Shown: one piece after another, positions 32,916 to 55,305 of the stretch | Layout of the letters: every line of letters starts with the position of its first letter | Numbering within the stretch: the first letter of the stretch is position 1 | Source of the DNA: Thermodesulfobacteriota bacterium | Lineage (GTDB): Bacteria; Desulfobacterota_D; UBA1144; Nemesobacterales; UBA2774 | Reading direction: 5' to 3' | Length of the DNA stretch: 64,000 nucleotides | Assembly (NCBI GenBank): GCA_040754335.1 | Contig: JBFMCV010000005.1 | Span: 263,586-327,585 of the forward strand | Translations under genes and position numbers: made by a program | The notes under the pieces: generated by a model | Database searches by the model: none | What the model was told of the DNA's origin: nothing | The model's input: the letters and a program-made list of their open reading frames with translations, nothing else

Positions 32916-34115
32916 ATGCACAAGGCGGTTTCATATGAGGCGGCCTTCGATGGGCTTGATTACGAATCCGGGGAATTACCGGAGGAGGCGCTTCCCCAGG
33001 AGGGCTTCGAGTTCGATTTTACGGAAGGTGATGATGAACCGGAGAGCGGCCCTGTCGCTGAGGGCCGGGGGCTCGTGTCCGGAGACCTCAACCAGGAGCT
33101 AAGGCTCGTAAATGCATACTTTAAAGAGGTAGGCACGGAAGCACTTCTCACGAGGAGGGAGGAGGTAGAGATTGCCGCCAAGATGAAGGAGTGCGAGGCG
33201 CATTCGCTTCGAATAAAGAAGGCGATAAGCCGGCTACTCGGCAGACGAGCCGCCGGTGAGCTATTCATGGACGAGCTCAAGATGCTTGCAGACGGATGCG
33301 CAGACAAACCGGTGTTGAACAGCGGGGAGAGAGACCGCTTGAGGAGGCTGGTTCATCTCCTCGAAGCATATACGAGAGCCGGAGCCAGGCTAAGGAACCG
33401 GTTTATAAAGGCTAACCTGAGACTGGTCGCCAGTCTGGCGAAGAAATACGTCGGGAGAGGGATCCCGTTCCTCGATTTGATACAGGAGGGAAACCTCGGT
33501 CTCATGAAAGCGGTAGAGAGGTTCGACCACACGAGGGGCTACAGGTTTTCGACCTACGCCTGCTGGTGGATAAACCAGTCGATGCTGAGGGGCATCTTCA
33601 ACCAGACGCGGACGGTAAAGATACCGGCGTACGTTCTCGAGAAGGCCGGGAAGGTATGGGCCGAGCGGGGAAAATTTGTGGAAGAGAAGGGAAGGGAGCC
33701 ATACCCATACGAGATCGCGGATTCAGTCGAGATGAGCGAGGAGAACGTAAAACAGATACTGGAATCGGGAAACGGGGTCAACATGGTAAGGCTCGACTCC
33801 CCGGTATGGGCCGGCGAGAAGGCTACATATATGGATTATATTCCCGATTCTGGCTCAACGCCCGTAGACTCGCTCATTGCCGAGATTTCCATCCCCGAGA
33901 GCGTCGAGCGGGCGTTACGCATGCTCGACGAGAGGGAGAGGGAGATCATAAAAATGAGGTTCGGCATCGGATATCAGGGGACGTTCACACTGAACGAGAT
34001 CGGAACCAGGTTCGGACTAACGAGAGAGAGGATAAGGCAGTTAGAAAAGAAAGCCCTTTCAACCTTAAGGCATTCGGATTGCGCGCAGGCTCTCAAGAGC
34101 CTTATCGAGCATTGA
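32916..34115 (+). CDS. RNA polymerase sigma factor, sigma-70 family (RpoD/RpoS-like, group 1/2)
   Basis: Region 2 (ANLRLVASLAKKYVGRGIPFLDLIQEGNLGLMKAVERFDHTRGYRFSTYACWWI). Region 3. Region 4 HTH (TLNEIGTRFGLTRERIRQLEKKAL). Confidence 0.85.
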   Translation: MHKAVSYEAAFDGLDYESGELPEEALPQEGFEFDFTEGDDEPESGPVAEGRGLVSGDLNQELRLVNAYFKEVGTEALLTRREEVEIAAKMKECEAHSLRIKKAISRLLGRRAAGELFMDELKMLADGCADKPVLNSGERDRLRRLVHLLEAYTRAGARLRNRFIKANLRLVASLAKKYVGRGIPFLDLIQEGNLGLMKAVERFDHTRGYRFSTYACWWINQSMLRGIFNQTRTVKIPAYVLEKAGKVWAERGKFVEEKGREPYPYEIADSVEMSEENVKQILESGNGVNMVRLDSPVWAGEKATYMDYIPDSGSTPVDSLIAEISIPESVERALRMLDEREREIIKMRFGIGYQGTFTLNEIGTRFGLTRERIRQLEKKALSTLRHSDCAQALKSLIEH

Positions 34116-35041: not shown

Positions 35042-35731
35042 ATGAAGTCCGCTAAATCTGCTCATGAAAGGATGATCTCGGTATTGAGTCTCAAGAATAA
35101 AGCCGGCTGGGGTGTCGAGCGCAGCGTAAGCGAGCTTCCCGACGAGGAGCTCGTGAGCCTGTTCGTCGCCGGAAGGGACGAAGAAGCATTCAACGAGCTC
35201 GTGAACAGGTATGGGGACAAGGTTTTCAGGCTCGCCTATAGGATAACGAATAATCAGAACGATGCCGAAGAAATACTTCAGGAGGTTTTTCTCATACTCG
35301 TGGAAAAGCTGGCTACATTCAGGAAAGAATCCAGGTTTTCGACCTGGCTTTACAGGGTAGCCTCGAACGCGAGCTTCATGTATATAAGGAATTCGAGAAG
35401 GAGCAGCGACAGGGTGCTGAGCCTGGACGACTATAAGCCCTATAACGATTACGGTGTGCTCGACGGTGTCGAGGAGAGGGACTGGAGCGGCAGGCCTGAT
35501 TCCGAGCTCCTCGGAAAGGAGGGTAGAAACGTTATAGAAAAAGCCATAGGCGAGCTGCCGGAAGAGTACCGGGTGGTCTTTCACATGAAGGATATTGAAA
35601 AAATGACGAGTAAAGAAATATCAAGCATATTGAAGCTTTCGGTGCCGGCGGTGAAATCGAGGGTGTTAAGAGCGAGGCTCTTCCTGAGGGATAAGCTTTC
35701 GGAATACTATTCGGAGCTAGATAACGGCTAG
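35042..35731 (+). CDS. ECF-type RNA polymerase sigma factor (sigma-24 family)
   Basis: Region 2 (ELVNRYGDKVFRLAYRITNNQNDAEEILQEVF ... WLYRVASN) and region 4 HTH (MTSKEISSILKLSVPAVKSRV). Confidence 0.8.
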   Translation: MKSAKSAHERMISVLSLKNKAGWGVERSVSELPDEELVSLFVAGRDEEAFNELVNRYGDKVFRLAYRITNNQNDAEEILQEVFLILVEKLATFRKESRFSTWLYRVASNASFMYIRNSRRSSDRVLSLDDYKPYNDYGVLDGVEERDWSGRPDSELLGKEGRNVIEKAIGELPEEYRVVFHMKDIEKMTSKEISSILKLSVPAVKSRVLRARLFLRDKLSEYYSELDNG

Positions 35732-37161: not shown

Positions 37162-38775
37162 CTATTCCCTCACCCTGTACAGCTTGTATCCGCCGATCTC
37201 TTTCTCGAGATAATAATTATCGCTGATGAACTCGTCGATATAGTCGATGCGGGTTATCTGCCCTTCGTGTTTACCTTCATAGACAACGAAATATTCGGGC
37301 TTGTTGGCGTTTAACGCCGGCGGCACCGTTTCCTTAAGATTTAATATCTCGAAGAGGACTTCGTGGTGATTGGGCCACCAGAAGTCTTTTATAGGCGCCC
37401 TTCTGTCTGAAAGGAATTGTACTATAGGCTGCCCGCCGATAACGAGAATGGTGTCATCCTCCGAAGTATTGCTTCTTATATAATCGGCGACCGCGTAGCT
37501 TGTGTCCGCTTCGAACCACACCTTGTCTTCGTTCTTCACGTACCGGATCGTCTCCGTTACGGGGTAGTGGACCAGGAACACCGCCGCGAGTATGACGATC
37601 AGCGCCTGGACGTATTTTCCACCGAGCCCGAGCTTCGAGACGCCGAGAGCGGTCAATAGAGAGAAAGACAGGCTCATTTGAAGGTAATAGTGCGGAAACA
37701 TACGCCTTCCCCAGAGCACTCCGACGAGCGAGAGAACCGTTAGAGCTGCGATGAACAGGAGAGACCTTTTTCCCTCGTCGCCGAACTTCCGCCTAAAAAG
37801 CTGAATCAGGATGACTAACGACGAAACGGTGGCCAGGAGCGTCGTGAAGTCTCGGCTCCATACGACAGCACCGTAAATAAAATAGTACAGGTTATCTACC
37901 GCTTCCCTGAACGAAACAGCCCCTACGTATCTGCCGTTGATAACGAAATACGTATAATAGAAATCGTATACGGCTCCGTGAATCGAAAAATATATGGTGA
38001 GGACCGATACTATCGACAGGACGCCCAGGGAGTACGAGGCCGATTCCTTTATGAACGATTTTATATCGAACCTTCGGTGTTTAACGTTCCTGTAAATTAT
38101 AAACAGAGGCACTACGAAGGCTGAGAACACCGCTGTGCCCTTCGTAAAGAAAGCAGCCGCCGTAAAAAATCCGCTCAGGAATAAAAGCGTCAATCCCCCT
38201 TTTTTCTCATAATCCAGAAAACAGAGAAGAGCCAGAATTACTGGAAGCATCATGAAGAGCTCGCCGTTTGAGGCCAGCCCTCCCATACCCGGCGTCGTAA
38301 AACTCAGGCCGTAGATTAAAGGCGGGATAAGGGATGTAAAGCCCTGAAAGAACCTCCGGGCCAACAAATAGACGAAGAACATGGATAGAAGAAGATAGAG
38401 CGTGGTATAGATGCGAAGCGCGGCGATGCTTTCGTCGAAGAGGAGGATCACGGGGACGAACGCGAAGAATAGAAAAGGGCCTTTTGTGTCCCAGGAGGTC
38501 TTATAAGGCACTCCCCCGTTAGCTACGTCCTGGGCGATAGTAAAGTAAACGGACTCGTCCCAGTCTATCACCGAGACGTCCGCGACCGGCAGCCTAAGTG
38601 CGAAAATCAGAAGCATTATCAGGAATAGCCAGACGGACTGGCTGTTTAACAAGCCTTTAAGTGTCATCTTCTCATCCGTTCCCACGTGGGGACATATTAT
38701 AATATTCGATTCATTTTGTGAAGCTGCACGTTCATCCCGGAGGCGGGATTTGACTGATCGACGAGAGCGAAGCAA
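37162..38775 (-). CDS. GT-C fold integral-membrane glycosyltransferase (GT39/GT83, ArnT/PMT-like)
   Basis: About 12 TM helices. First-loop motif VIDWDESVYF resembling the DE motif of PMT/ArnT. 537 aa. Confidence 0.65.
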   Translation of the reverse strand: MLRSRRSVKSRLRDERAASQNESNIIICPHVGTDEKMTLKGLLNSQSVWLFLIMLLIFALRLPVADVSVIDWDESVYFTIAQDVANGGVPYKTSWDTKGPFLFFAFVPVILLFDESIAALRIYTTLYLLLSMFFVYLLARRFFQGFTSLIPPLIYGLSFTTPGMGGLASNGELFMMLPVILALLCFLDYEKKGGLTLLFLSGFFTAAAFFTKGTAVFSAFVVPLFIIYRNVKHRRFDIKSFIKESASYSLGVLSIVSVLTIYFSIHGAVYDFYYTYFVINGRYVGAVSFREAVDNLYYFIYGAVVWSRDFTTLLATVSSLVILIQLFRRKFGDEGKRSLLFIAALTVLSLVGVLWGRRMFPHYYLQMSLSFSLLTALGVSKLGLGGKYVQALIVILAAVFLVHYPVTETIRYVKNEDKVWFEADTSYAVADYIRSNTSEDDTILVIGGQPIVQFLSDRRAPIKDFWWPNHHEVLFEILNLKETVPPALNANKPEYFVVYEGKHEGQITRIDYIDEFISDNYYLEKEIGGYKLYRVRE

Positions 38776-38961
38776 CTCATCCGTCCGGGTTTCATTTCAC
38801 GTAATTTATTTAGGCGCATAAGGCGGGTATCGCTTAGTTGAAATTTTCCGTGAATTAATTGTTAATCGGCGAGTACTTACACGTAAGTTATTGACAACGA
38901 AAAACGTTTAACTGTAAATTTTCAAAAGGCGTGGATTTCTTAATTTAGAGAACACTACTCA

Positions 38962-39642
38962 GAAGGAGGATTTTCAGCCGTGACGAGGATAAGGAAATAC
39001 TTCCCTCTCATTATTTTCATAATTCCGGTAACAGCGATTTTATTAATCTTAGGACCGACCAGGTTCAACAAGCCCGTAAAGGGGAGCTCCGATTCTCTGA
39101 GCGTTCGGACAGAGAACGACTTCGTTACGGACCCCGGACTTGTAGCCCTGCCCGGGGAGGACATAGTGGCTGTGCTTCTGGAATCCCAGGACTGCAGCGT
39201 TCTCGAGAAAGACACCGGGGGTAAGGGTTACGACATAATCCCGTATAGATATACGGCGCCGATGGAGCAGACGTTCTGCTGGGACGACCGGAACAAGGGT
39301 GCGGGGCATTACATGGTGCTGGTAGACGACGAGGGCGTTGAGGTTCTTCAAGTTAATGCGAACGGGGAATGCGCTACGGGGACGGTGGAGGCCGGGGATT
39401 ACGAGATGAGGGTGTTCCACGACGAGGAGACGGAGAAGAACGTGGCCGTGTTCATAGTGCCCGAGAACAACAAATCTACTCTCAGCACTGCGTCGGACGA
39501 GACGCTCGAGAATATATCAACCTTTCTCGATACGGACAGGTGCGTGGGGTGTGATCTTTCTGGGGCGAACCTTTACAATGCCGATCTCAGCGGAGTGGAC
39601 CTTGAGGGGGCGAAGCTTAATGACGCGATATTGGCTAATGCG
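38962..39642 (+). repeat. About 680 bp block nucleotide-identical to 44854-45534 (RBS plus the 5' coding region of the giant paralogs)
   Basis: Six-frame ORFs on both strands are letter-for-letter identical between the copies (e.g. 39049-39420 and 44941-45312). The offset is exactly 5892 bp. Identity decays to about 80-90% after 39642. Confidence 0.85.
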
Positions 39643-42600
39643 GATCTGAGCGGAGCAAACCTGAAAGGGGCTGAGCTTAAGAACGCTGACCTGACGGGGG
39701 CTAAGCTGAAGGGGGCGGCGCTTGCAGGAGCGGACCTCACGAACGCGGTTCTAATAAACTCGGACCTTTCGGACGCGGACCTCACCGCGGCCAACATGGA
39801 GGGCGCGGACGTAACGGGGGCTAACGTCACGGACGCTCAACTTTCAGGGGCGGTTACGACAGGGATAGTACGAAATAATATTGACACGGGTGAAGAGATT
39901 AAACCGAGGGTCCACGAGGACATGGTTTCAACCGTCACCTGCACTACTGGTGCAATAGCCGCCGGAACGGGGGAGGACCTCGATGTCACGGGCCCGTGCA
40001 CGGTCGGCGCGGGGACTTACCACTACCGCAACGTTCATATATATAACGGCGGCTCGCTCACTTTCGAGGACGCCGTAATTCATTTCTGGGCTTACAACAT
40101 ACTTGTGGAAAATAACGGGAGCCTAATTGCGGGTTCTGTAACAACTCCTATCGGCGCAGCCGGCGGTAAACTGACGATTCATTTATACGGCGAGGACCAG
40201 GGCAACGGCGGAAAAGGCGTTCTCTGCAAAACGGGCGACATGTGCGGCGTGGATACCAACATATGGAACAACGACCATACGAGCAAGCAGAGCCTGCCCG
40301 GTCCGGTATCCGACTTCTTCTACCAGTACCATCACCTGCCTGTTGACTCGGGCGATACTCATGGCTACTTCGGGTACAAGACTCTCGCGGTCTCTTACGG
40401 CGGGACTTTGAGATTGTTCGGAAAGAAGGGGGCACTTTATCCCGATACAGCTCCCTCGCCTTCCGATTCCGGAATGAGCTGGGTGCGTCTAAACGGCACG
40501 GTCAACGTCGGAGCCACGCAGCTTACGGTCGACCGTCCCGTCGATTGGGGAGTCGGGGACAGGATCGTGATCACTACGACCGACTATCTCCCCGCGCATT
40601 CCGAGGTCCTCGAAATAATAGCGCCGCCAGTCAGCAGTACGACGTTTAATTTCAAGGTCATAAACCCGTTCACGGGCGCGGAAATACCCGGCGGGCTGAA
40701 GTACAGGCACCACGGCGTCACTTACCCCCTGACCGCGATACCTACTTCATACGGAATAAACATCAAGGTCAACGGCCAGCCGGCCGCCGAGACAAGGGCT
40801 GCAGTTGCGCTGCTGTCGCGCAGCATACGCATAGTTTCGGGGGGCGACACTTTCAACGCCGCGAACCCCACGTGTGAATACGACTGCCTCAGCAGCTCCC
40901 CCGCGACCTATCACTTCGGGGGCCACACGAGCGTGAGACAAGGGGCTAAAGAGGTCAAGATACAGGGCGTCGAGTTTTACCAGCTCGGGCAGGGCGGGAG
41001 GCTCGGACACTATCCGGTCCACTTCCACATAGCGAGGCAAGTTCCGGACGGCACTTTCGTGAAGGACTCCTCCATATGGGATTCGATGACCCGGTTTATC
41101 ACCATACATGCGACCCAGGGCGTTACGCTCGCGAGAAACGTGGGTTTCATGTCCATAGGCCACGGTTTTTATCTCGAGGACGGCACGGAGATAAACAACA
41201 AGCTCTATTCGAATATAGGCATACTTGCGCGCGCGGCGGTAAACAACCCTCAGAACCCGCGCCAGGTGCCGGGCATACTCGCCTGGAGCGGGAACCCCGG
41301 CGCTCCGCTGGTTCCTTATAATTCGGATATCTACAATCCAACCGTTTTCTGGATCATGAACGGGTGGAACGATTTCGAATATAACATGGCCGCGGGCGCA
41401 ACCGGGTGCGGCGTGTGCTACTGGCTCCTTTCCGGCGCCAACAGCGGCGCTTCGCAGGGCATGAAGTGGGAATCCTACGCCTCGATGCAGAGCGGCCCGG
41501 TCAAGACGGTAGACATGAAGACGTACGAGGAAAATTTCGGCAGGGCAGGGATGACGCCTCTTAAATCGTTCGTAGGCAACTACTGCACGTCGGCAATGAT
41601 GTCCTTCAATACCGTGGGAGCCACTGATTCATGCATAGGCGTGAGCAGCTTCACTCCGCTTACCAACCCGCTGGCCGAGACGCCGGCAGGGGATAAAAAC
41701 ATGGAAACCTATTACCCGAAGGTCGACCCCGGAGGCGGACGCTTCGCCACCAGGTGCGACGGCACTGACTGCGGCCCGACGGCGATACCGAACAGGTGCA
41801 GCACCGGCGACCGGAGCAAGTGCATGGTCACTGTACTCGACAGGTACACTTCGTCCTTCCACTGGCCTCAGCAGAATTTCGCCGCGATATGGCTCCGTCC
41901 GCAGTGGTACCTCTATATAAATAGCTTCCTCTCAGACGTGCAGAACGGCGGGCTCGGCTTCGTTACCGGAGGGGACTATACGCTTGCGAGCGTAATCCCG
42001 GGTCTCTGGCAGCTTGCGACGAAATCCGTCTTCGTAGGACATACACAGACCGATAACCCTCTCTCTTCGAACGCAGGGCCGTTCAACCCGCTCAAGAGCA
42101 CAGACATGAAGATTTCCGGCCTTGTCTGCGACAACGGCGATGCCAACCACTGCAGGTCGGCAGCGGAGGGTATAAGCATGCCGATCGACAATTTCGGCGT
42201 GAATCAGCGTTTCTACAACATATACGACGGCCCCAATTACCAGGACACGAACGCGTACCTCGACATAACGGAAACAAATCTCAACCCGGTGTGCCAGCCG
42301 GGCAATTGTCCCCAGTTCGGACCGGGAATCGGCATGCCTGCATGGATGTATACGCGGGTTATAGGAGTACCTGTAAACAAGACGAAGAACGCGTGTGTCC
42401 TGCCGAACGCGGCTATAGGATGGAAACAGCCGAACGGATTTTTCTATCCCCCTGCTTTCCATTCGGAGAAGCTTTATTTCCACAATGTGGACATACGACA
42501 TTATGTGCTTGAGCCTCTTTGGGATGCCGGTACATATACAACGAATGAGGATAAAGTCAAAACGGATTACTGCACGTTTCCAGCAAGCAATATGTTCGGA

Positions 42601-44622
42601 AACTTCAGCAGTGTCGACAGGCAGACCGTGCTAAACGACGACGACGGGTCGCTCACCGGACTATTGAGTCCCCCTGTTCCCGCCAAGGGTGAAACTATTT
42701 CAGTGAACCTCGACCCCTTCTTTAACGCACCGATTGAAGCAACTGAGTGCGAGTCCTTCAACACCGCAAAAACGAGTCCGTACGAGTACCTATCTACCAT
42801 TATTTATCCGGGTTGTGTGGGGAACAAGGACTGCGGCGCAAAGTGCGCCATCGACCAGAAGCCGTGCCTCGATAACAGCAACTGCGGCGGGGTTTGCAAG
42901 ATCGACCACAAGTCATGCTCCACTAACAACGATTGCAATTTGAGTAATCCGGACAATACGTGCGACTTTGGCCTCAATGCGTGTAATCTCAATGTTTCTT
43001 ACTGGTCAAGGCCATGTACTAACGCATCCTGCTACGGTGTCCCTCTGGAGAGGCAGCTCTTGACGTCAGCGGACAATCCTGATTTGTCCACAACGGGAAT
43101 CCGAATGGCCGGGATGGATCTCTATCAGAGGAGCATGATGACGCTCAACGACGGCGTTTATTACATTGATACGACGGTTTCGGAGGCCGAGCAGAGAAAG
43201 ACCGCGCAGAACCTGAACGTGTTTAAGCCGGGGGATACATACTATGTGTTCTTCCTCTACGCCAAGCCGAGCACGAAGCAGACATACCAGATATACGTGG
43301 GCACAGGGCTTAACCTTGACACCGATGTCAACATCGTACGTGCCAACATTGCCGGTTTTCCGATCATGTTCCCTGCAGGACCGGCCGACTGGGGCAGCGT
43401 CGGGTGGACGAAGAATTACGACAGCAATACTGGCATACTGACCGTCACTGTCGATATGAGCTCGTTCGCTACGGAATTCGCAGACACAAAGAAAGATTTC
43501 TGCCAGCCGGCGAGCTTCTGCACCCTGACCGGGGATACATGCGGATGCTCGACCTCGCTCCCGAGTGACCAGCTTGCGGCTTGCCAGGCGGGCAATATAT
43601 GCGGCAAGTGGGCGGGAAAGGATATAGACTGTCCCAAGGGCGGGTGCCTCGGTTTCTCGTTCAAACTCCCGAATCCGGGTTTCGTCGCGGACAATAAGGG
43701 GAATATCCTCCAACCCACGGGACACCGCCCAAAGCCTGTGTGCTTCCCGAACGAGGCTCCCTGGAATATAAGCCTGACGCGCGCGTCTGTTGAAGTCGCG
43801 GGCTCGTGCTCGACTACGCCGATAGACAATCCCAAGTTCTGCTCGCCGGGTGTTCCGCCTCCACCTCCGCCTCCGACCGAGCCTCCACCTCCGCCCCCGC
43901 CTCCTCCCCCAGGCGCTGATAAGGACAACGACGGAGTTGGGGACGACGTTGATTCCGACGGTGATAACGACGGCATTCCTAACAGCATGGAATCGTCATC
44001 GAGCGCTACAAACGTATTGAGCTCGACGCGCCTGACGATACTCAACGACCCCGACGGGGACGGGATACCGAACGAGTTCGACCTTGATTCGGACGGGGAC
44101 GGCATCCCCGACCACTTCGAAGCGGGCGGGAACAACGATGCGAACAGGGACGGACTTGCGGACAACCATATTGATACGGACGGGGACGGCCACCACGACG
44201 CGCACGATCCCGAAACGGGCGGCGCTCTCCTGCCGCTCCACGACACGGACGGGGACGATATACCGGACTTCCTGGATACGGATTCGGACGGGGACGGCGT
44301 TACAGACACGAATGAAACTGCGGGCTGTGTGGATGCGGACGGGGACGGTGAGCACGATAATTCCGGTGATTCGAACAGTGACGGACTTCCGGACAGCGTT
44401 CATCCCGCTACGGGCGCCCCGTGCGGTTTAATCGATTCGGACGGTGACGGGATTTTCGACCACCTCGACGCCGTGCACGACGGAGGGGGTGTTGAAGATG
44501 ACGGAGGCGGGAACTGCGCGATCGCCGGAACCGGTAGCGGCAAAGGAAGCCTCGCCGGACTCCTGCTCGCGTATTCTCTCATACCCGCAAGCATCCTTGT
44601 ACGCAGGAAGATGAGGAGTTAG
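38980..44622 (+). CDS. Giant secreted/surface protein 1 (1880 aa) with pentapeptide repeats, a large conserved core, Cys-rich inserts, a poly-Pro linker, TSP3-like Ca-binding repeats and a C-terminal sorting-like signal
   Basis: GTG start 8 nt after the RBS AAGGAGGA. N-terminal TM/signal (YFPLIIFIIPVTAILLILG). Pentapeptide repeats A(D/N)L(S/T)GA(N/K)L. Motifs shared with the paralog (RAAVALLSRSIRIVS, GVEFYQLGQGGR.G.YPVH.H, NGWNDFEYNMAAGA). PPPPPPTEPPPPPPPPPP. DxDxDG repeats (DSDGDGIPDHFE etc). C-terminus GGGNCAIAGTGSGKGSLAGLLLAYSLIPASILVRRKMRS. Confidence 0.85.
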   Translation: MTRIRKYFPLIIFIIPVTAILLILGPTRFNKPVKGSSDSLSVRTENDFVTDPGLVALPGEDIVAVLLESQDCSVLEKDTGGKGYDIIPYRYTAPMEQTFCWDDRNKGAGHYMVLVDDEGVEVLQVNANGECATGTVEAGDYEMRVFHDEETEKNVAVFIVPENNKSTLSTASDETLENISTFLDTDRCVGCDLSGANLYNADLSGVDLEGAKLNDAILANADLSGANLKGAELKNADLTGAKLKGAALAGADLTNAVLINSDLSDADLTAANMEGADVTGANVTDAQLSGAVTTGIVRNNIDTGEEIKPRVHEDMVSTVTCTTGAIAAGTGEDLDVTGPCTVGAGTYHYRNVHIYNGGSLTFEDAVIHFWAYNILVENNGSLIAGSVTTPIGAAGGKLTIHLYGEDQGNGGKGVLCKTGDMCGVDTNIWNNDHTSKQSLPGPVSDFFYQYHHLPVDSGDTHGYFGYKTLAVSYGGTLRLFGKKGALYPDTAPSPSDSGMSWVRLNGTVNVGATQLTVDRPVDWGVGDRIVITTTDYLPAHSEVLEIIAPPVSSTTFNFKVINPFTGAEIPGGLKYRHHGVTYPLTAIPTSYGINIKVNGQPAAETRAAVALLSRSIRIVSGGDTFNAANPTCEYDCLSSSPATYHFGGHTSVRQGAKEVKIQGVEFYQLGQGGRLGHYPVHFHIARQVPDGTFVKDSSIWDSMTRFITIHATQGVTLARNVGFMSIGHGFYLEDGTEINNKLYSNIGILARAAVNNPQNPRQVPGILAWSGNPGAPLVPYNSDIYNPTVFWIMNGWNDFEYNMAAGATGCGVCYWLLSGANSGASQGMKWESYASMQSGPVKTVDMKTYEENFGRAGMTPLKSFVGNYCTSAMMSFNTVGATDSCIGVSSFTPLTNPLAETPAGDKNMETYYPKVDPGGGRFATRCDGTDCGPTAIPNRCSTGDRSKCMVTVLDRYTSSFHWPQQNFAAIWLRPQWYLYINSFLSDVQNGGLGFVTGGDYTLASVIPGLWQLATKSVFVGHTQTDNPLSSNAGPFNPLKSTDMKISGLVCDNGDANHCRSAAEGISMPIDNFGVNQRFYNIYDGPNYQDTNAYLDITETNLNPVCQPGNCPQFGPGIGMPAWMYTRVIGVPVNKTKNACVLPNAAIGWKQPNGFFYPPAFHSEKLYFHNVDIRHYVLEPLWDAGTYTTNEDKVKTDYCTFPASNMFGNFSSVDRQTVLNDDDGSLTGLLSPPVPAKGETISVNLDPFFNAPIEATECESFNTAKTSPYEYLSTIIYPGCVGNKDCGAKCAIDQKPCLDNSNCGGVCKIDHKSCSTNNDCNLSNPDNTCDFGLNACNLNVSYWSRPCTNASCYGVPLERQLLTSADNPDLSTTGIRMAGMDLYQRSMMTLNDGVYYIDTTVSEAEQRKTAQNLNVFKPGDTYYVFFLYAKPSTKQTYQIYVGTGLNLDTDVNIVRANIAGFPIMFPAGPADWGSVGWTKNYDSNTGILTVTVDMSSFATEFADTKKDFCQPASFCTLTGDTCGCSTSLPSDQLAACQAGNICGKWAGKDIDCPKGGCLGFSFKLPNPGFVADNKGNILQPTGHRPKPVCFPNEAPWNISLTRASVEVAGSCSTTPIDNPKFCSPGVPPPPPPPTEPPPPPPPPPPGADKDNDGVGDDVDSDGDNDGIPNSMESSSSATNVLSSTRLTILNDPDGDGIPNEFDLDSDGDGIPDHFEAGGNNDANRDGLADNHIDTDGDGHHDAHDPETGGALLPLHDTDGDDIPDFLDTDSDGDGVTDTNETAGCVDADGDGEHDNSGDSNSDGLPDSVHPATGAPCGLIDSDGDGIFDHLDAVHDGGGVEDDGGGNCAIAGTGSGKGSLAGLLLAYSLIPASILVRRKMRS

Positions 44623-44871
44623 TACGACAAATTCGTCTGCACTCAATCGTCCTTACAGCATTGCTTCGAGCGGGGTGTCGCGTGTCGTAACGACACCCTG
44701 TTCGAAACTCCTCCCTGCGGTAAACCGGTTACCGGGTTAATCAATCGATATAAACAGTAGTCTTTTGGTTTTTTATGTTCTTTTGATATATAAATACAAG
44801 AAGCGTTAAAATTATCATGGAGTTGGATGTTTCTATAATTGGGGCAATACCTTGAAGGAGGATATTCAGCC

Positions 44872-47800
44872 GTGACGAGGATAAGGAAATACTTCCCTCT
44901 CATTATTTTCATAATTCCGGTAACAGCGATTTTATTAATCTTAGGACCGACCAGGTTCAACAAGCCCGTAAAGGGGAGCTCCGATTCTCTGAGCGTTCGG
45001 ACAGAGAACGACTTCGTTACGGACCCCGGACTTGTAGCCCTGCCCGGGGAGGACATAGTGGCTGTGCTTCTGGAATCCCAGGACTGCAGCGTTCTCGAGA
45101 AAGACACCGGGGGTAAGGGTTACGACATAATCCCGTATAGATATACGGCGCCGATGGAGCAGACGTTCTGCTGGGACGACCGGAACAAGGGTGCGGGGCA
45201 TTACATGGTGCTGGTAGACGACGAGGGCGTTGAGGTTCTTCAAGTTAATGCGAACGGGGAATGCGCTACGGGGACGGTGGAGGCCGGGGATTACGAGATG
45301 AGGGTGTTCCACGACGAGGAGACGGAGAAGAACGTGGCCGTGTTCATAGTGCCCGAGAACAACAAATCTACTCTCAGCACTGCGTCGGACGAGACGCTCG
45401 AGAATATATCAACCTTTCTCGATACGGACAGGTGCGTGGGGTGTGATCTTTCTGGGGCGAACCTTTACAATGCCGATCTCAGCGGAGTGGACCTTGAGGG
45501 GGCGAAGCTTAATGACGCGATATTGGCTAATGCGAATCTCTCAGGGGCTAACTTAAAGGGGGCGGAGCTCAGGAACGCTGACCTGACGGGGGCTAAGCTC
45601 AAGGGTGCAACACTTGCGGGTGCAGATCTCACGAACGCGGTGCTTATAAACTCGGACCTCTCAGACGCGGACCTCACCGCGGCCAACATGGAGGGCGCGG
45701 ATGTGACGGGGGCTAATTTCGGTAATGCAAACCTTACGGGCGTCTTACAAACCAAATCCGCTGATACGGGCGCCGACGCCGGTGAAGATATTGTCTCACT
45801 GAGCGAGGAGCTGGAGGCCGCTCCAACAGACACATGTTCCGAGGGTAAGCTCGCGCCGGGGGACGGAACGAAGGACCTCCTTATATCTGCTAAATGCGAT
45901 GTGTCGGCTGGAGTATACCTTTATCAGAACGTAAACGTTATACAAAACGGCGTGCTCAATTTCGTGGACGGGGGCGGAGAGACGCATTTCTGGGCCAAGT
46001 CTATACTGGTCGAGAACAACGGAACTATATCGGCGGGAACCACGCAGGCGCCGTTCGGGAAAAATAAGAGCGTCCTAACGATACACCTCTACGGGGGCGA
46101 CAGCGACAAGACGGGCATTGAATGCAGGACTCCCAAGCAGAATACAAATGATCCGCCGTGCGGCATAGACAAGAATGTGTGGACCTCAAACGGTGGATCA
46201 AAAGTCACCCTGCCGCCGGGTAACATTTCGGATTATTTCTACCAGTATACTCAGCACGATAATACGCAGGGCGAAACGGGTTTCTTCGGCAGAAAAGTAT
46301 TAGCTGTATCCTACGGCGGGACTTTGAAGCTATACGGCAAGAAGGGTGCTAAATACGGGGACAACATTCCAAATTACGACTCGGGCACTAGCTGGGTGAG
46401 GCTAAAGAACGACAAAGACGCATCCAAAACACTAATCTTTCTCGACCGCGACGTGGATTGGGAAGTGGGGGACCGCATAGTGGTCACCACTACGGACTAC
46501 CTTCCCGGGCATTCCGAGGAGCTTCAGATCGTAAAGAAAGAGGGACCGAGAAAGCTCAGGATAACTATTGTCGACCCCGCGACGAATATGCCGCCCGCGG
46601 GCTGTGTCACCGATAATCCCAATGTAGACAAGTGCGGTCTCAGGTGGGTGCATAACGGGGATACTTACCCGGATACTGACTTCAACTTTCAGAGTGACGA
46701 TCTTAAGCGCCTGAGTCTCAATATCAAACTAGCCAACGGCGGGGTCGACAACGGGAAGGCGCTTGCCGAGACCAGGGCCGCTGTCGCGCTCCTCTCCCGC
46801 AGCATACGCATAGTGTCCGCGGGAGACAGTATCCCGGCTGAATCCGGCAGGAAGTGCAAGTTCGACTGCTTCCCGACGGGATTTTACGGCGGCCATACCA
46901 TGTTAAGGCAGGGCATTAAGCTCGTACAGATACAGGGGGTCGAGTTTTACCAACTGGGCCAGGGAGGGCGGAAGGGACGCTACCCGGTCCATTTGCACCT
47001 GCTCCGCAAAGCGCCTCCTACTACGTTCGTTAAAGATTCTTCAATAAACGAGTCTATGACCAGGTGGATTACGTTCCACGGCACGCAGAACGTGACCGCC
47101 GCGAGGAACGTGGGCTGGAAGTCCATAGGGCACGGATATTATCTCGAGGACGGCACGGAGACGGATAACAAGTTATATTCGAACATAGGTATCTTCGCCC
47201 GGGCTGCGCTCAACAACGTACAGAACCCGCGCCAGGTGCCCGGAATTCTGGCGTACGCAGTTGCCGACGTACCTTTTGGAAAGCAGGACACGGTTGCCGT
47301 CCCCTACCACAGTGATTACGCGCAGCCAGCAGTGTTCTGGATAATGAACGGATGGAATGACTTCGAATACAACATGGCCGCGGGGGCGAACGCATGCGGC
47401 ATCTGTTACTGGTGGCTGCCGGGAGCTATAAGCGGCATGTCGCAGGACCAGAAATGGGAGTCCTACGCCTCGCAGCAAAGTAATCTGGGCAGGGCGGGAC
47501 TCACACCGCTCAAGAATTTCAAGGGCAATTACTGCTCTTCGGCGATGAACGCCTTTAATTCCATACAGGATATAAGCCCGTGTCTCGGCGTCGGCGGTAT
47601 TGGAGGCACGTTCCCGACCCTCGAGCCTGTTACCGTAGGAAACATTTCACCTGCGCCTAAGCCGGGGGAGGGGGAAAGATATTATCCCAAGGTTAACGGT
47701 TCGCATAATCCTACGAAATGCGACCAGACTGACTGTTCTAATGCGCCCGTCTGTACATCGGGAGACCGAAAAAATTGCGTGGTCGCTGTTATAGACCGGC

Positions 47801-49767
47801 TTACTACTGCGTTTCACTGGGCCGAGACGAATTTTTCGGCAATATGGCTCCGCCCGCGGTGGTATCTCGTCATAAACAGCGTGATATCGGACGTACAGAG
47901 CGCGGGCCTGACATTCGTGACCGGCGGCGACTATACGGAATCGAATTTCTTCCCCGGACAGTGGCAGCTAGCTAGGCAGAATGTATTTATAGGTCAGACT
48001 CAGCCCAATAATCCACTCGCGTCGGCCGCGGGACCTGTCAATAAGGGTACGAATCTTAAATGCGCGGACCAAACCAACGGCGTCGTAGTCAATAGTTATT
48101 GCCTACTCAAGGATGAGGGAATAAGCTTCCCCCTCGCAAATTTCGCGAACAACCAGCGTTTGTTCAATATATACGACGGCCCGAGTTTCGAAGACTCGAA
48201 TGCCTTTTTCGACATCAAAAAGACGTTTATAGACGATTGCACGGTTGGGCAAGGTAGCTGCTCGGCAAGTAAGTCGATGTACGGAAGGGTTCCGCTTATG
48301 CCTTATGATAAGAAGAAAAATCAGTGCTATCTGCCGAACGCAGCGATCGCATGGAAACAGCCGAACGGCTTTTACTACCCTCCGGCATTCCACTCTGCGA
48401 ACCTCTATTTCCGGAACAACGTCGATATACGCCATTTCGTTATAGAGCCGCTGTTTCAGCCGGGCAAGTTCGCATTCCAGTCTGACGACGAGCGCACAAA
48501 ACAGAATTACTGTACCTTCACACTTAACAACTCCGAAGGTTTCGGGGGATCGTTCGGCAATTTCTCTGCTATCGACAGGCAGACCATACTCAACGACGAC
48601 GACGGCTCGCTGACCGGGCTTAAGAACACGATATCCGTAAATGAGGACCCGTTTTTTAACGCTCCGACTGAAACGCTCGAATGTCAGTCGGAGGAGACGG
48701 CCAAAACCAGTCCTTATGACTATGTAACGACGGTCATATATCCGGACTGTGTGGCGAAAAAGAACTGCGGCGGTGTATGTAAAGTGGACAAGAAACCATG
48801 CGCCGATACCAGTAATTGCGCGGATATTCCGAATAATACGTGCGATGACAGTAACGCGTTCTGGAACAGCGACTGCGGGAGCTCTTTCTGCTACGGCGTC
48901 CCGCTTTACAGGCAGTTACTTACCAAAGACGAAGCAAGCAACACGAAAGGCGCCGAGATACGCATGATGGGAATGAACTTTTTCCAGAGGAGCAACCTCA
49001 CGGCAAACCACGGCGTTTATTACATTGATACTACGGTTTCAGATGCGAACCAGAGGGCGGGTCTGAATCTAGCGCCTCTTCAGAAGCCTTCCGTGAACGT
49101 ATTTAAGGGCGGTGAAACTTATTACGTACTCTTCATATTCGCCAAGGCTAACACGAAGCAGACTTACCAGATTTATGTCGGGAACGGGTTCGATCCTGAG
49201 AAAGACGTAAGCGGAATACAGTCCCCCCTTAAAAAGAGCCGTCCGCTCGACGTTAATTCTATAAGCTGGCCGGCTAAATGGACGAGAAAATGGTATAAAG
49301 ACGACCCGTCGACGGGCATCCTGGAAGTTACGGTGGATTTCAGTGACTTCAAGACGCAGTTCGATAACGCCAGGAAGGACAGGTGCCAGCCGGAGACTTT
49401 CTGCACGTGGACCGGTTCCGCCGCTACGGGCTCGTGCGGATGTTCTGATAAGCTGAAGACGAGCAACCCCGAGCTCTACGCTGAATGCACAAAGTCGCTC
49501 GGGGATAATAAGAACAATATATGCAGCTGGGCTGTGAGAGCGGTCGACTGCCCCGAGGGCGGCTGCTACGGGTTTGCGGTCAATCTGAAGAATGATCCCC
49601 CGGCCGAGCCTATTGCCCCTCCGGCGCCGTGCTGCTTCCCCGATAACCCAGACTGGAATGTTAACTTCAGCCCGGTGGGACAGAACGTAGCCGGGAGCTG
49701 TCAGGACTCGAATCCGCCGAAACCTGAGTTCTGCACTTCTCCGGTATGTCCGACGACACAGTTGTAA
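44872..49767 (+). CDS. Giant secreted protein 2 (about 1630 aa), paralog of 38980-44622, lacking the TSP3 repeats and the C-terminal sorting signal
   Basis: Same GTG/RBS context as copy 1, which is why I prefer 44872 over the upstream ATG of the ORF track. The first roughly 220 aa are identical, then about 55-60% identical through the core. Ends ...EFCTSPVCPTTQL. Confidence 0.85.
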   Translation: MTRIRKYFPLIIFIIPVTAILLILGPTRFNKPVKGSSDSLSVRTENDFVTDPGLVALPGEDIVAVLLESQDCSVLEKDTGGKGYDIIPYRYTAPMEQTFCWDDRNKGAGHYMVLVDDEGVEVLQVNANGECATGTVEAGDYEMRVFHDEETEKNVAVFIVPENNKSTLSTASDETLENISTFLDTDRCVGCDLSGANLYNADLSGVDLEGAKLNDAILANANLSGANLKGAELRNADLTGAKLKGATLAGADLTNAVLINSDLSDADLTAANMEGADVTGANFGNANLTGVLQTKSADTGADAGEDIVSLSEELEAAPTDTCSEGKLAPGDGTKDLLISAKCDVSAGVYLYQNVNVIQNGVLNFVDGGGETHFWAKSILVENNGTISAGTTQAPFGKNKSVLTIHLYGGDSDKTGIECRTPKQNTNDPPCGIDKNVWTSNGGSKVTLPPGNISDYFYQYTQHDNTQGETGFFGRKVLAVSYGGTLKLYGKKGAKYGDNIPNYDSGTSWVRLKNDKDASKTLIFLDRDVDWEVGDRIVVTTTDYLPGHSEELQIVKKEGPRKLRITIVDPATNMPPAGCVTDNPNVDKCGLRWVHNGDTYPDTDFNFQSDDLKRLSLNIKLANGGVDNGKALAETRAAVALLSRSIRIVSAGDSIPAESGRKCKFDCFPTGFYGGHTMLRQGIKLVQIQGVEFYQLGQGGRKGRYPVHLHLLRKAPPTTFVKDSSINESMTRWITFHGTQNVTAARNVGWKSIGHGYYLEDGTETDNKLYSNIGIFARAALNNVQNPRQVPGILAYAVADVPFGKQDTVAVPYHSDYAQPAVFWIMNGWNDFEYNMAAGANACGICYWWLPGAISGMSQDQKWESYASQQSNLGRAGLTPLKNFKGNYCSSAMNAFNSIQDISPCLGVGGIGGTFPTLEPVTVGNISPAPKPGEGERYYPKVNGSHNPTKCDQTDCSNAPVCTSGDRKNCVVAVIDRLTTAFHWAETNFSAIWLRPRWYLVINSVISDVQSAGLTFVTGGDYTESNFFPGQWQLARQNVFIGQTQPNNPLASAAGPVNKGTNLKCADQTNGVVVNSYCLLKDEGISFPLANFANNQRLFNIYDGPSFEDSNAFFDIKKTFIDDCTVGQGSCSASKSMYGRVPLMPYDKKKNQCYLPNAAIAWKQPNGFYYPPAFHSANLYFRNNVDIRHFVIEPLFQPGKFAFQSDDERTKQNYCTFTLNNSEGFGGSFGNFSAIDRQTILNDDDGSLTGLKNTISVNEDPFFNAPTETLECQSEETAKTSPYDYVTTVIYPDCVAKKNCGGVCKVDKKPCADTSNCADIPNNTCDDSNAFWNSDCGSSFCYGVPLYRQLLTKDEASNTKGAEIRMMGMNFFQRSNLTANHGVYYIDTTVSDANQRAGLNLAPLQKPSVNVFKGGETYYVLFIFAKANTKQTYQIYVGNGFDPEKDVSGIQSPLKKSRPLDVNSISWPAKWTRKWYKDDPSTGILEVTVDFSDFKTQFDNARKDRCQPETFCTWTGSAATGSCGCSDKLKTSNPELYAECTKSLGDNKNNICSWAVRAVDCPEGGCYGFAVNLKNDPPAEPIAPPAPCCFPDNPDWNVNFSPVGQNVAGSCQDSNPPKPEFCTSPVCPTTQL

Positions 49768-50952: not shown

Positions 50953-52167
50953 TCAGCTCTTGAAGACGGGTCCTGTCCTCTCTGTTTTATAGGAGTAGTA
51001 AAGAAGGAATGCCAGCATCGATAGCCAGATAAACGCCTGGCCGGTTCTGAAAGGTGTCCCGAGAGGAAAAGGGAGCTGGAGGAAGGACCCGGGAGAGAGT
51101 AGGGCCAGCCAGGAGATAAGGAGCAGGAGGTCGGCTGCGAGACTCTCATTCGGAGAAAGTTTATCAGTTCTTACTATTCTGAAGATTGCAATCATCGGAA
51201 CGATAATCAACAGGTCGTCGTACAGGCGGTGATAAGTCCAGAGACGAGCGACAATAGCAGCGACCCCGAGCTGAATCCAGATGTCAATTTTCCGGAATTT
51301 GAATAACCAGAGTGAGAACGCTGCGATGAGGACGAATGAGGCAGGGAATATTAATCGTTCGAGGCCAAGGGTAATGAGCCAGATGTGGATGTTCGCATAT
51401 CCACCCCGTGCCGCCACGGCGGAACAATCATGAAGCCAGATTTGAAGCGTCTGAACAAGGCCCTCGTCTCTGTACGATATTGCAACGTAGGTCAGAACTG
51501 AATAACCGCAGGCTGCAATAGCTAAAGGGCGGATAGCTCTTTGGGTAATGAGCGCTATCAGAAAGAACGGCGCTGTAACGGTGATCTTGAGTGAGGCAAA
51601 AAGGAAAAGCAAGGAGAGAATGACGTCCTTGATTATGCTGATTTCACGCTCGCTCTCCATCAACACAGCCGTTAGGATGCACGGAAGGAGAAAGAGGATG
51701 ACCTGACCGTTCCCGATCGTTATTCCTGTCGGGTAGATTGACAGGATAAATAGAGCAGCGAATATTCTCTCTTCCCTTTTCTCGATACCGGTTTCTGCTG
51801 ACACTATTCGAAAGAGCCACACAATTGAGACTGCATATAAAGCCGCCCAAAGCCATCTCGTCGATTCGAAGGAGAGCCATCCCGTGAGCGGCCAGATTAT
51901 CGCGTAGGTCGCGGGAAGGTGTATGATCTCAAAGAGCGCCTCTCCTTTGAACCATTGGTCGACGCTTTCATAGATGATTCTGAGATCGATCGCTCCGTTC
52001 CAATTATGGTCGAGCAGGAGGCGCCAGAACTGATATCCCAGTCTCGTTACCGCAAGTATGGACATCAAAACAAATGCGATTCTGAATAACGGCGCTCGCG
52101 GATGACGGCACCGCCGCTGAATTACGGACAACCGTTTTGTAAATGAAGCACCGGCCGGGGAGCTCAT
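50953..52167 (-). CDS. Polytopic membrane protein, putative polyprenol-phosphate-sugar-dependent glycosyltransferase (DUF2029/GT87-like, tentative)
   Basis: About 10 TM helices, 404 aa. The family assignment is by topology and size only. Confidence 0.5.
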   Translation of the reverse strand: MSSPAGASFTKRLSVIQRRCRHPRAPLFRIAFVLMSILAVTRLGYQFWRLLLDHNWNGAIDLRIIYESVDQWFKGEALFEIIHLPATYAIIWPLTGWLSFESTRWLWAALYAVSIVWLFRIVSAETGIEKREERIFAALFILSIYPTGITIGNGQVILFLLPCILTAVLMESEREISIIKDVILSLLFLFASLKITVTAPFFLIALITQRAIRPLAIAACGYSVLTYVAISYRDEGLVQTLQIWLHDCSAVAARGGYANIHIWLITLGLERLIFPASFVLIAAFSLWLFKFRKIDIWIQLGVAAIVARLWTYHRLYDDLLIIVPMIAIFRIVRTDKLSPNESLAADLLLLISWLALLSPGSFLQLPFPLGTPFRTGQAFIWLSMLAFLLYYSYKTERTGPVFKS

Positions 52168-53859: not shown

Positions 53860-55305
53860 ATGTCCAGAAACGGCGTTTTGCAAAGATATTCATCGCATCT
53901 CAAAATTCTGATGAAAAAAGATACTGAGGACGTGCTGTGGCGGGTCTTGTTATGGGGGATATTTGCGGGAATCCTCGTCTCTATTTTTTTCTATTCGTAT
54001 AATCGGGAATTTGATCCGGATGAAATAGAGCATTTACATACTGCATGGAAAATCGCTCAGGGTCAGGAAATATTTGTCGATTTCTTTCAGCACCATCATC
54101 CGTTCTTCGATTACTTGATTACACCAATTATCCGTACTTTCGGGGCCACCGTCGAGTCCATATTCGTTAGTCGTTATTTCATGTTATTGTTCACTGCTTG
54201 TATTTTGATTACGACCTATCTGTTGTCTCTCAGAATATTCAAGAATTCCGAAGTGGGAATCATCAGTTTGATATTGACCTCGACTGACATTACGTTTTAT
54301 ATGAAATCGATCGAGATCAGGCCCGACGTTCCGCAAGTACTGGCGGGACTTTTATCAATATATTTTTTATTTGTCTACTATGATAGAAAGTCTCTCAAGA
54401 GTCTTATAGCCAGTTCGGTATTCCTGGCAGTCTCTTTTCTTTTTCTGCAAAAAAGCATTGTTTTAATTATTGCTATCGGCGCACTGCTGCTTTACGACGT
54501 ATTCAAAAAGTACGTTACCTACCGGCATGCAGCCCTATACGCGGCGGTCTTTATAATATCGATATCGCCGTATTACATATATGTCTTGCTGAGCGGTACT
54601 TTTGAGCAATATTTTGTGACAAACTGGTTAGTCAACTATCATCTTCATGAGGGTTCAGGAATGCTGGATATCTATCTTGTAATCGCGAGAGAGAACACCA
54701 TTACGTTGGTCCTTTACCTGATAGGCGTGATAACGATGTTCGGGTTGGGCATGGAAAGGAGATTTGCTGCGCTTTCGCTCCTTCTGATGATCATCCCATC
54801 AATTTTGTTTCATAACATCTTGAGGCAGTACCTGGTGCTTGCAGTGCTCCCCTTCTGTATTATCGCGAGCTACGCGCTTTATTCGGTTTTTGACAGAAGG
54901 CTGTTCAGGCTAATCGTTGTAATAGGGGCAATATATATACCTCTAATCTACACTCACAATTATGGATTTTTCAGATTGGATAGACGGGGTCAGAGAGATC
55001 AGCTGGCTAAAATTGAATATGTGTTGTCGATAACCGACGAAAACGACAAAGTTTATGACGGCAATGTCATATTTAATGTATTTCGTGACGACATCGATTA
55101 TTTCTGGTTTTGCATGGAGCATTCGTCCTGTCTCGATGCGTATAAGAAAGTAACGGGTTACAAATATAACGTCTATGATTCGATCGTTGCAAAGAAGCCT
55201 AAAGTCATATCGACTTACGAAATTGGCAGTCTCGATGACGTAAGAATCAAGAATAACTATAAAGTGTCGGAGAGGTATCCGGATTTGTTAATAAGAGTGG
55301 ATTAG
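53860..55305 (+). CDS. GT-C-like integral-membrane glycosyltransferase candidate with a C-terminal soluble domain (paralog A)
   Basis: About 10 TM helices. First-loop motif FDPDEIEHLHTAWKI (DE motif as in PMT/ArnT). About 130 aa C-terminal soluble domain. About 60% identical to 55489-56883. Confidence 0.55.
   Translation: MSRNGVLQRYSSHLKILMKKDTEDVLWRVLLWGIFAGILVSIFFYSYNREFDPDEIEHLHTAWKIAQGQEIFVDFFQHHHPFFDYLITPIIRTFGATVESIFVSRYFMLLFTACILITTYLLSLRIFKNSEVGIISLILTSTDITFYMKSIEIRPDVPQVLAGLLSIYFLFVYYDRKSLKSLIASSVFLAVSFLFLQKSIVLIIAIGALLLYDVFKKYVTYRHAALYAAVFIISISPYYIYVLLSGTFEQYFVTNWLVNYHLHEGSGMLDIYLVIARENTITLVLYLIGVITMFGLGMERRFAALSLLLMIIPSILFHNILRQYLVLAVLPFCIIASYALYSVFDRRLFRLIVVIGAIYIPLIYTHNYGFFRLDRRGQRDQLAKIEYVLSITDENDKVYDGNVIFNVFRDDIDYFWFCMEHSSCLDAYKKVTGYKYNVYDSIVAKKPKVISTYEIGSLDDVRIKNNYKVSERYPDLLIRVD

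Follow-up and report, generated by a model that had tools for sequence, protein, structure and literature searches.

A tandem pair of giant TMEM2/CEMIP-like genes sharing one 5' module, probably through recurrent gene conversion

Two very large genes lie head to tail on the + strand of a 64,000-nucleotide stretch of a Thermodesulfobacteriota bacterium (Dadabacteria-type; assembly GCA_040754335.1, contig JBFMCV010000005.1 of 351,956 bp, positions 263,586 to 327,585; hereafter the window), and they begin with almost the same 681 bp while the remainder of their sequences has diverged to synonymous saturation. The question raised by this locus is how a single 5' module stays alike in two genes that are otherwise so far apart. 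The genes, termed copy 1 and copy 2 (c1 and c2), are very probably ancient tandem paralogs whose N-terminal module (N-module) has been kept alike within each genome by recurrent gene conversion, that is, by segmental concerted evolution. In the following, W denotes the 64-kb window locus, and L001, L002 and so on denote related loci in other assemblies.

The shared 5' block and its counterparts in related loci

The two 681-bp tracts (Table 1), lying at an offset of exactly 5892, differ at a single position, base 38972 (T versus A), which falls between the GGAGG ribosome-binding site (RBS; 38965-38969) and the GTG start codon and leaves an exact run of 670 bp (38973-39642). A preliminary description of this DNA had reported a perfect block of about 680-690 bp at this offset, beginning at the RBS and not at the promoter, followed by divergence of the two genes; it was right to within that one base. 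Identity starts at the RBS and is at random level upstream of it. The tract is followed by a zone of intermediate divergence over the remaining pentapeptide repeats, with 28 mismatches in 182 positions (~85% identical), mostly spaced at multiples of 3, which stops where a paralog-specific linker starts. The whole block thus measures 863 bp at 96.6% identity, and a blastn search of the window with it returned two copies only. Past the block, the copies share only patches at 64-69% nucleotide identity, with 30% identity between the paralogs in the linker beyond the pentapeptide repeats and 56% protein identity in the core.

Synonymous divergence (dS) between the paralogs in the window is 0 for codons 1-221, 0.80 for codons 222-283, where nonsynonymous divergence (dN) is 0.047, and saturated (>2) elsewhere. 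Because the remainder of the genes has saturated synonymous divergence, the 670-bp exact run is not a product of chance. Judged from its sequence, the intermediate zone is consistent with an older conversion event.

About 105 full-length relatives were present among the matches listed. Those carrying the N-module belong almost entirely to Dadabacteria/Thermodesulfobacteriota, and G8-plus-beta-helix proteins without it occur in many soil lineages and in the cultured Thiocapsa, Methylotetracoccus and Paludibaculum. The search of other genomes for the paired arrangement, which the preliminary description had proposed, recovered the same tandem pair in conserved synteny in independent assemblies, namely L001 (an ENA scaffold), L002/L003 (GCA_035325995, assembled with SPAdes), L004, and L013 (a 1.33-Mb contig of a Microflora Danica metagenome-assembled genome, MAG). 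The MAG set containing L013 comes from a project with deep Nanopore sequencing (PMC12313526), and the reading frames of L013 are broken, consistent with a Nanopore origin. The conserved gene order consists of an extracytoplasmic function (ECF) sigma factor, small genes, a PMT_2 gene, the pair, orf404, an amine-oxidase-like gene and two PMT_2 genes. L002 has the pair in the opposite order to the window, with the orthologue of copy 1 as the downstream gene.

Core protein identity is 82% between W_c1 and L001_c1, 85% between W_c2 and L001_c2, and 78% between W_c1 and the downstream gene of L002, against 52-56% between paralogs. The N-terminal 185 residues follow the opposite pattern, with protein identities of 100% within W, 100% within L001 and 85% within L002, compared with 79-84% between W and L001 and 49-55% between either of these and L002. 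In identity matrices and in neighbour-joining (NJ) trees of 20 genes alike, cores sort by orthologue and N-terminal regions by genome. The duplication is old, since the core domains group by orthologue; a recent tandem duplication was considered and rejected, the cores being both saturated and orthologous. A third paralog type, 'c3', to which the upstream gene of L002 and the L040 gene would belong, may exist but is not claimed, as the NJ trees were not consistent enough.

The extent of the similarity differs from genome to genome. L001 has its own perfect run of 719 bp, starting not at the RBS but ~17 codons into the gene, in the part coding for the transmembrane (TM) helix, and its gene call begins at a different codon than those of the window genes. 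Within-genome block identity is 96% in L013 (843 bp), 83.7% in L004 (863 bp) and 80-83% in L002. The block ends near +850 nt in L001, L004 and L013, as it does in the window, at the end of the pentapeptide repeats; in L002, ~80% identity runs on for about 2.5 kb. The pair therefore displays the characteristics by which concerted evolution is recognised: within-genome similarity in one segment only, a duplication older than the species splits, a collapse of dS inside the tract, and independent events with different end points (at the RBS in W, ~17 codons in for L001). The conversion confined to the N-terminal module that the preliminary description had put forward is accordingly backed by both dS and comparative evidence.

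The mechanism we infer is intrachromosomal gene conversion between direct repeats, presumably by RecA-type homologous recombination. Transfer of the block from one paralog to the other would be recent and would have taken place in each lineage on its own, with tract limits set by where usable homology exists. The upstream bound would correspond to the unrelated promoter regions, and the downstream bound to the paralog-specific linker, followed by cores presumably too diverged (~65-70% at the nucleotide level) to recombine.

Copy number also varies among the related loci. L009 and L012 (Microflora Danica MAGs), with both flanks visible, hold a single gene that joins the N-module to a copy-2-type core, and the same combination is present in L007 and L011, whose contigs break off within the gene or past it. 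L018 and L025 hold a single gene with the N-module and a copy-1-type core, both flanks being visible in L018. Directly 5' of the single gene in L007 and L012 is the PMT_2 gene that the window has in front of copy 1. Because the core tree places L007 and L009 amid copy-2-type genes that come from genomes with two copies, loss is the parsimonious reading of the single-copy loci. Recombination between the direct repeats would loop out the upstream core and leave the arrangement 'upstream flank - N-module - downstream core', and such repeat-mediated deletion may have given rise to these loci.

Two further observations concern the assemblies themselves. L008, L010 and L040 are Dadabacteria-type loci in MAGs labelled 'uncultured Spirochaetia bacterium', which mis-binning or mislabelling may explain. 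L013, L014 and L023 belong to one long-read MAG (MFD09730.bin.2.52), each contig carrying a version of the locus with a core 71-79% identical to copy 2, suggesting strain haplotigs or extra loci.

Protein architecture and the TMEM2/CEMIP relationship

Copy 1 encodes, in order, a TM anchor, a PPC-like beta-sandwich, a pentapeptide beta-helix, a G8/CEMIP beta-helix core, a Cys-rich insert, a Pro-rich linker, DxDxDG repeats and a C-terminal sorting-like tail. Copy 2 has the same architecture up to the C-terminal domain and terminates in ...CPTTQL, without the Pro-rich linker, the calcium-binding-type repeats or the tail. As the preliminary description had noted, the two copies are colinear through the pentapeptide repeats, the conserved motifs of the core and the Cys-rich insert, and the three C-terminal features are present in copy 1 only. 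Both proteins are named only 'pentapeptide repeat-containing protein' at NCBI, a label that covers ~6% of the protein.

The N-module combines the TM helix, the collagenase-PPC-like beta-sandwich and the pentapeptide beta-helix, the identical block encoding most of the last, and it is present in more than 30 full-length relatives that were aligned. An AlphaFold (AF2) model of residues 1-345 (predicted local distance difference test, pLDDT, 77.5) contains a TM helix at residues 8-24, a probable uncleaved signal anchor, and a disordered linker. The N-terminal beta-sandwich led to PPC/collagen-binding domains in a fold search, and its sequence matched no family in NCBIfam or Pfam. In the pentapeptide segment, A(D/N)LXX units repeated in tandem build a quadrilateral beta-helix, with Pfam scores of 93-97 bits in both proteins.

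The core gives Pfam matches to CEMIP_beta-hel (PF24606) with 159.1 and 155.8 bits for copies 1 and 2 (cut-off 27.3) and, N-terminal to the beta-helix, to G8 (PF10162) with 39.2 and 35.7 bits (cut-off 22.9), the G8 match covering the model in part (positions 28-87 of 124). A sequence search of solved structures retrieved the TMEM2 ectodomain (8c6i) with an E-value of 2.6e-22, the other matches being pentapeptide-repeat proteins and two weak ones obtained through those or the DxDxDG repeats. A profile of 54 family members, compared with the PDB, matched 8c6i alone (E 8.7e-45), colinearly over G8, the beta-helix and a later DDDGS-type motif, with the common motifs GRYPVHFH and LEDGxE. An AF2 model of residues 321-1520 of copy 2 (pLDDT 84, predicted template-modelling score 0.87) was paired with 8c6i by Foldseek with E 4.4e-30, template-modelling scores of 0.51/0.48 and a sequence identity of 16%; the weaker Foldseek matches were mostly beta-helix polysaccharide lyases, glycosidases and phage tailspikes. 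On the strength of sequence profile and predicted structure, the core is homologous to the ectodomain of animal TMEM2/CEMIP, with G8 merged into a right-handed beta-helix such as polysaccharide lyases and hydrolases have.

The statement of the preliminary description that the core fold was unknown is superseded by this Foldseek match, and its guess at a G8/PbH1-like domain proved sound, since G8 and a CEMIP beta-helix homologous to the TMEM2 ectodomain are found by Pfam, profile and Foldseek. Membership of an ordinary known family had been set down there as a finding that would count against its account; this applies in half, as the core does belong to a known Pfam family, though one uncharacterised in bacteria.

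A lectin-like (GG/PANDER-like) domain after G8 was not found, Pfam at E<=0.1 giving only G8, CEMIP_beta-hel and pentapeptide families. The profile alignment places 16 positions (profile 241-257) opposite TMEM2 residues 159-327, which make up lectin-like domain 1, with ~170 residues. Substitutions reported to reduce hyaluronan degradation map to this domain (PMC10206443). Because the region of TMEM2 lectin-like domain 1 is missing in the profile alignment, the bacterial proteins are named TMEM2/CEMIP-like and not hyaluronidases. The GRYPVHFH, LEDGxE and DDDGS residues invariant with TMEM2/CEMIP could mark the active site of the animal proteins.

At the C terminus, eight copy-1-type genes have in common G-[NG]-C-A-[IL]-A, a hydrophobic stretch and RR[KR]. 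The tail resembles MYXO-CTERM and PEP-CTERM signals in its tripartite form, in which a short Cys motif is followed by a hydrophobic helix and, at the extreme C terminus, by clustered Arg/Lys residues. It differs from them in that the tail of copy 1 scores below the cut-off of TIGR03901 (MYXO-CTERM) in NCBIfam (10.8 bits, cut-off 20, E 0.51), and with this sub-threshold score the tail was not assigned to MYXO-CTERM. Among the window open reading frames (ORFs) covered by the Pfam and NCBIfam scans, no cognate sorting enzyme or sortase-like enzyme was found. A different C terminus is carried by L002 10001-15247 and L040 6313-11254, with a DUF7151-type segment, 'EVLT(M/V)ETDEPPGENCE(F/L)GGTKIETGLD', followed in L002 by the same sorting-like tail; the L040 frame stops at the contig end.

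The two proteins contain 52 and 49 cysteines, and this abundance, together with the calcium-repeat and sorting-like tail region, suggests an extracytoplasmic location. They are very large proteins, probably extracytoplasmic and anchored in the membrane, with a topology deduced from these features. An envelope-anchored glycan-binding or glycan-cleaving role is favoured because beta-helix relatives act on polysaccharides, because the locus keeps three PMT_2 (GT-C) glycosyltransferase genes beside the pair in several genomes, and because the proteins are Cys-rich and N-terminally anchored, copy 1 with a surface-sorting-like tail. The pair may thus present two diverged, envelope-anchored glycan specificities on a common stalk.

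Weighing the explanations

Purifying selection by itself, for instance on mRNA or translation-initiation structure, could in principle keep such a block alike with no conversion at all, and it would suit a block that includes the RBS and start codon and a module so widely kept among the aligned relatives. It has practically no chance of being the explanation, given that dS is zero within the genome and ~1.05 for the same codons between orthologues, that N-modules are no closer in protein identity between genomes (79-84%, or 50-55% where the L002 lineage is compared) than cores are, and that the trees group N-modules by genome. Between the W and L001 orthologues, codons 1-221 have a dS of 1.03-1.07 and a dN of 0.11, and since this dS resembles that of the core (0.95-1.5), the block is not specially constrained. 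An assembly artefact, by which a collapsed or duplicated repeat or stitched strain variants would make the block or the second gene unreal, has to be considered for a source that is a MAG, as De Bruijn assemblers can homogenise near-identical repeats. Such an error is nevertheless highly improbable here: no fewer than four further assemblies, made independently (L001, L002/L003, L004 and L013), contain the same tandem pair with a 5' block of high identity, the L002 and L004 blocks at 83-85% cannot come from collapse, and the bodies of both genes are orthologous to distinct genes elsewhere. L013, with its block at 96%, belongs to a MAG set built on Nanopore data, so short-read assembly does not account for the repeat.

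Programmed surface variation, with the 5' block as a recombination cassette or the two promoters as an expression switch, corresponds to the alternative-expression reading of the preliminary description, and would accommodate the different upstream regions with promoter-like hexamers, the hairpin between the genes, a copy number that differs among related genomes and a sorting-like tail in one copy only. The comparative data do not bear it out, and it is now improbable: both cores are orthologously conserved under purifying, not diversifying, selection (core dN/dS between genomes ~0.1), the converted part is an invariant module and not a variable epitope region, and the copy-number differences are between species-level genomes. 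No silent or promoterless cassettes, promoter-flanking inverted repeats (as for an invertible promoter), or homopolymer or simple-sequence tracts were found, the tandem repeats seen being a coding Pro-rich hexamer repeat and weak repeats inside coding sequence only.

Several points weigh against recurrent gene conversion as set out above, or against the functional picture attached to it. The two N-modules of L004 are only 84% identical within the genome and are not sisters in the tree, so that conversion appears episodic, not continuous. A short-read assembler could, by collapsing repeats or popping bubbles, have raised the literal 100% a little, and the deletion through the repeats is reconstructed from end states only. 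When the literature was searched for bacterial CEMIP/G8 homologues that had been characterised, the papers retrieved all dealt with the animal proteins, and no biochemical function of any bacterial member came to light. Even the catalytic activity of TMEM2 is disputed (PMC10206443, PMC10276149 versus PMC10474455), and the bacterial proteins appear, from their sequences, to be without its lectin-like domain 1 region.

A separate and rather unlikely proposal holds that the 5' module is functionally required and not a passive by-product of homology. In one version, the PPC-plus-pentapeptide stalk common to both paralogs would be needed for their docking, either to a single partner or to one another; the module would then evolve together with that partner, and selection would favour conversion. 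In the other, the direct repeat would serve as a reversible copy-number switch: through loop-out and re-duplication, the upstream promoter would come to stand before another TMEM2-like catalytic core, and cells of one population would differ in how they process envelope glycans.

Setting in the window and known systems

Both genes are complete, each with its own RBS and start codon; copy 2 begins at TTG 44839 in the mechanical ORF list, versus the GTG at 44872 used here. The hairpin between the genes lies 43 nt past the stop codon of copy 1, with no U tract after it, and is a possible terminator of that gene. As pattern matches only, the promoter-like hexamers before each gene and the intervening hairpin suggest separate transcription of the copies.

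Table 1. Positions of the features of the tandem pair and its surroundings in the window
Feature	Position	Strand	Remarks
Copy 1	38980..44622	+	1880 aa, GTG start, NCBI MEW6145796.1
Copy 2	44872..49767	+	1631 aa, GTG start, NCBI MEW6145797.1
Probable recent conversion tract, upstream copy: RBS, start codon, codons 1-221	38962..39642	+	dS = 0
Probable recent conversion tract, downstream copy	44854..45534	+	offset 5892 from upstream copy
Intermediate-divergence zone, remaining pentapeptide repeats	39643..39824	+	codons 222-283; partner 45535-45716
N-terminal hydrophobic helix (aa 8-24)	39001..39051	+	AF2 helix 8-24 and sequence; copy 2: 44893-44943
Beta-sandwich resembling collagenase collagen-binding/PPC domains (aa 41-162)	39100..39465	+	copy 2: 44992-45357
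Pentapeptide-repeat quadrilateral beta-helix (aa 177-292)	39508..39855	+	copy 2: 45400-45747
G8 (aa 346-406) through CEMIP beta-helix (aa 646-831), copy 1	40015..41472	+	Pfam, profile, Foldseek
G8, copy 2	45922-46113	+	Pfam
CEMIP beta-helix, copy 2	46885-47550	+	Pfam
Pro-rich linker (aa 1626-1644)	43855-43911	+	copy 1 only
Eight DxDxDG thrombospondin-type-3-like repeats (aa 1646-1830)	43915-44469	+	copy 1 only
C-terminal tripartite tail (aa 1842-1880): GGGNCAIAG, hydrophobic stretch, RRKMRS	44503..44619	+	copy 1 only
Sigma-70-like hexamers 5' of copy 1	38891..38920	+	consensus match only
Two overlapping sigma-70-like hexamer pairs 5' of copy 2, outside identical block	44783..44839	+	consensus match only
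Perfect 16-bp-stem hairpin (TTCGAGCGGGGTGTCG...CGACACCCTGTTCGAA)	44665..44706	+	folding free energy (dG) ~ -27.7 kcal/mol
PMT_2 (GT-C fold, ArnT/PMT-like) glycosyltransferase	37162-38775	-	flanks pair upstream
PMT_2 glycosyltransferase	53860-55305	+	flanks pair downstream
PMT_2 glycosyltransferase	55489-56883	+	flanks pair downstream
ORF, 236 aa	49891-50601	-	no Pfam or NCBIfam match
ORF, 404 aa (orf404)	50953-52167	-	no Pfam or NCBIfam match
Full-length sigma-70	32916-34115	+	upstream of locus
ECF-type sigma factor	35042-35731	+	upstream of locus

The two downstream PMT_2 genes are tandem paralogs (75% nucleotide identity over 472 bp), and the association of PMT_2 with the pair is kept in L001, L004 and L012. 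The 236-aa and 404-aa ORFs are paralogs of each other (70% nucleotide identity over 318 bp, with tblastn cross-matches), and related genomes likewise have one, or sometimes two, members of this family downstream of the pair. Like these two, the ORFs at 56912-57469 and 57478-59097 received no assignment from Pfam and NCBIfam. A 201-aa protein with RTX calcium-binding nonapeptide repeats (PF00353, E 9e-21) is encoded at 60940-61545 on the - strand, and a similar gene is present at L001 23843-24451. The ECF and sigma-70 genes are in conserved synteny with the locus in L002, L007, L009 and L012.

The locus offers a clean multi-genome example of module-limited concerted evolution, in which anchor and stalk are identical and enzyme-like cores are saturated, with matching copy-number turnover visible in related genomes. 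It also yields a gain in annotation, a full-length TMEM2/CEMIP-ectodomain relative standing behind an uninformative name, and the large and diverse bacterial family, with a few invariant motifs in common, provides a conservation map that could guide TMEM2/CEMIP mutagenesis.

TMEM2 has a type II topology. The bacterial proteins are like it in their apparent N-terminal TM-helix anchor and large extracytoplasmic part, and like TMEM2 and CEMIP (KIAA1199, HYBID) in having a G8 segment fused to a parallel beta-helix. They differ from TMEM2 in the additional PPC-like domain, pentapeptide repeats and Cys-rich insert, to which copy 1 adds calcium-binding-type repeats and the sorting-like tail, and one would not expect hyaluronan to be the substrate of a bacterium from soil or sediment. 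Compared with the pentapeptide-repeat proteins Rfr32 (2g0y), MfpA and Qnr, the repeats here make up a stalk-like internal segment of ~115 residues within a giant extracytoplasmic protein, and not a free-standing cytoplasmic DNA mimic.

The tufA/tufB genes are a known case of concerted evolution of duplicated bacterial genes. Gene conversion, segmental in extent, is also reportedly seen among the Helicobacter pylori bab/hom outer-membrane paralogs. A set of 26 long-lasting cases of gene conversion between bacterial paralogs has been published (PMC6053082). The present pair resembles all of these in that paralogs are closer within a genome than orthologues are between genomes, and in the recurrence of lineage-specific events with copy loss in some lineages. 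It is unlike them in that conversion is confined to one module (~220-283 of 1600-1900 codons) with the rest saturated, and in that the genes are tandem, not dispersed, and their products are giant proteins of the cell envelope in an uncultured lineage and not subunits of core complexes. Gene conversion between bacterial paralogs is already well known, and the process is therefore a known one and no new type of genetic system; what this case adds is multi-lineage conversion restricted to one module, in tandem genes for giant envelope proteins of a group without cultured members.

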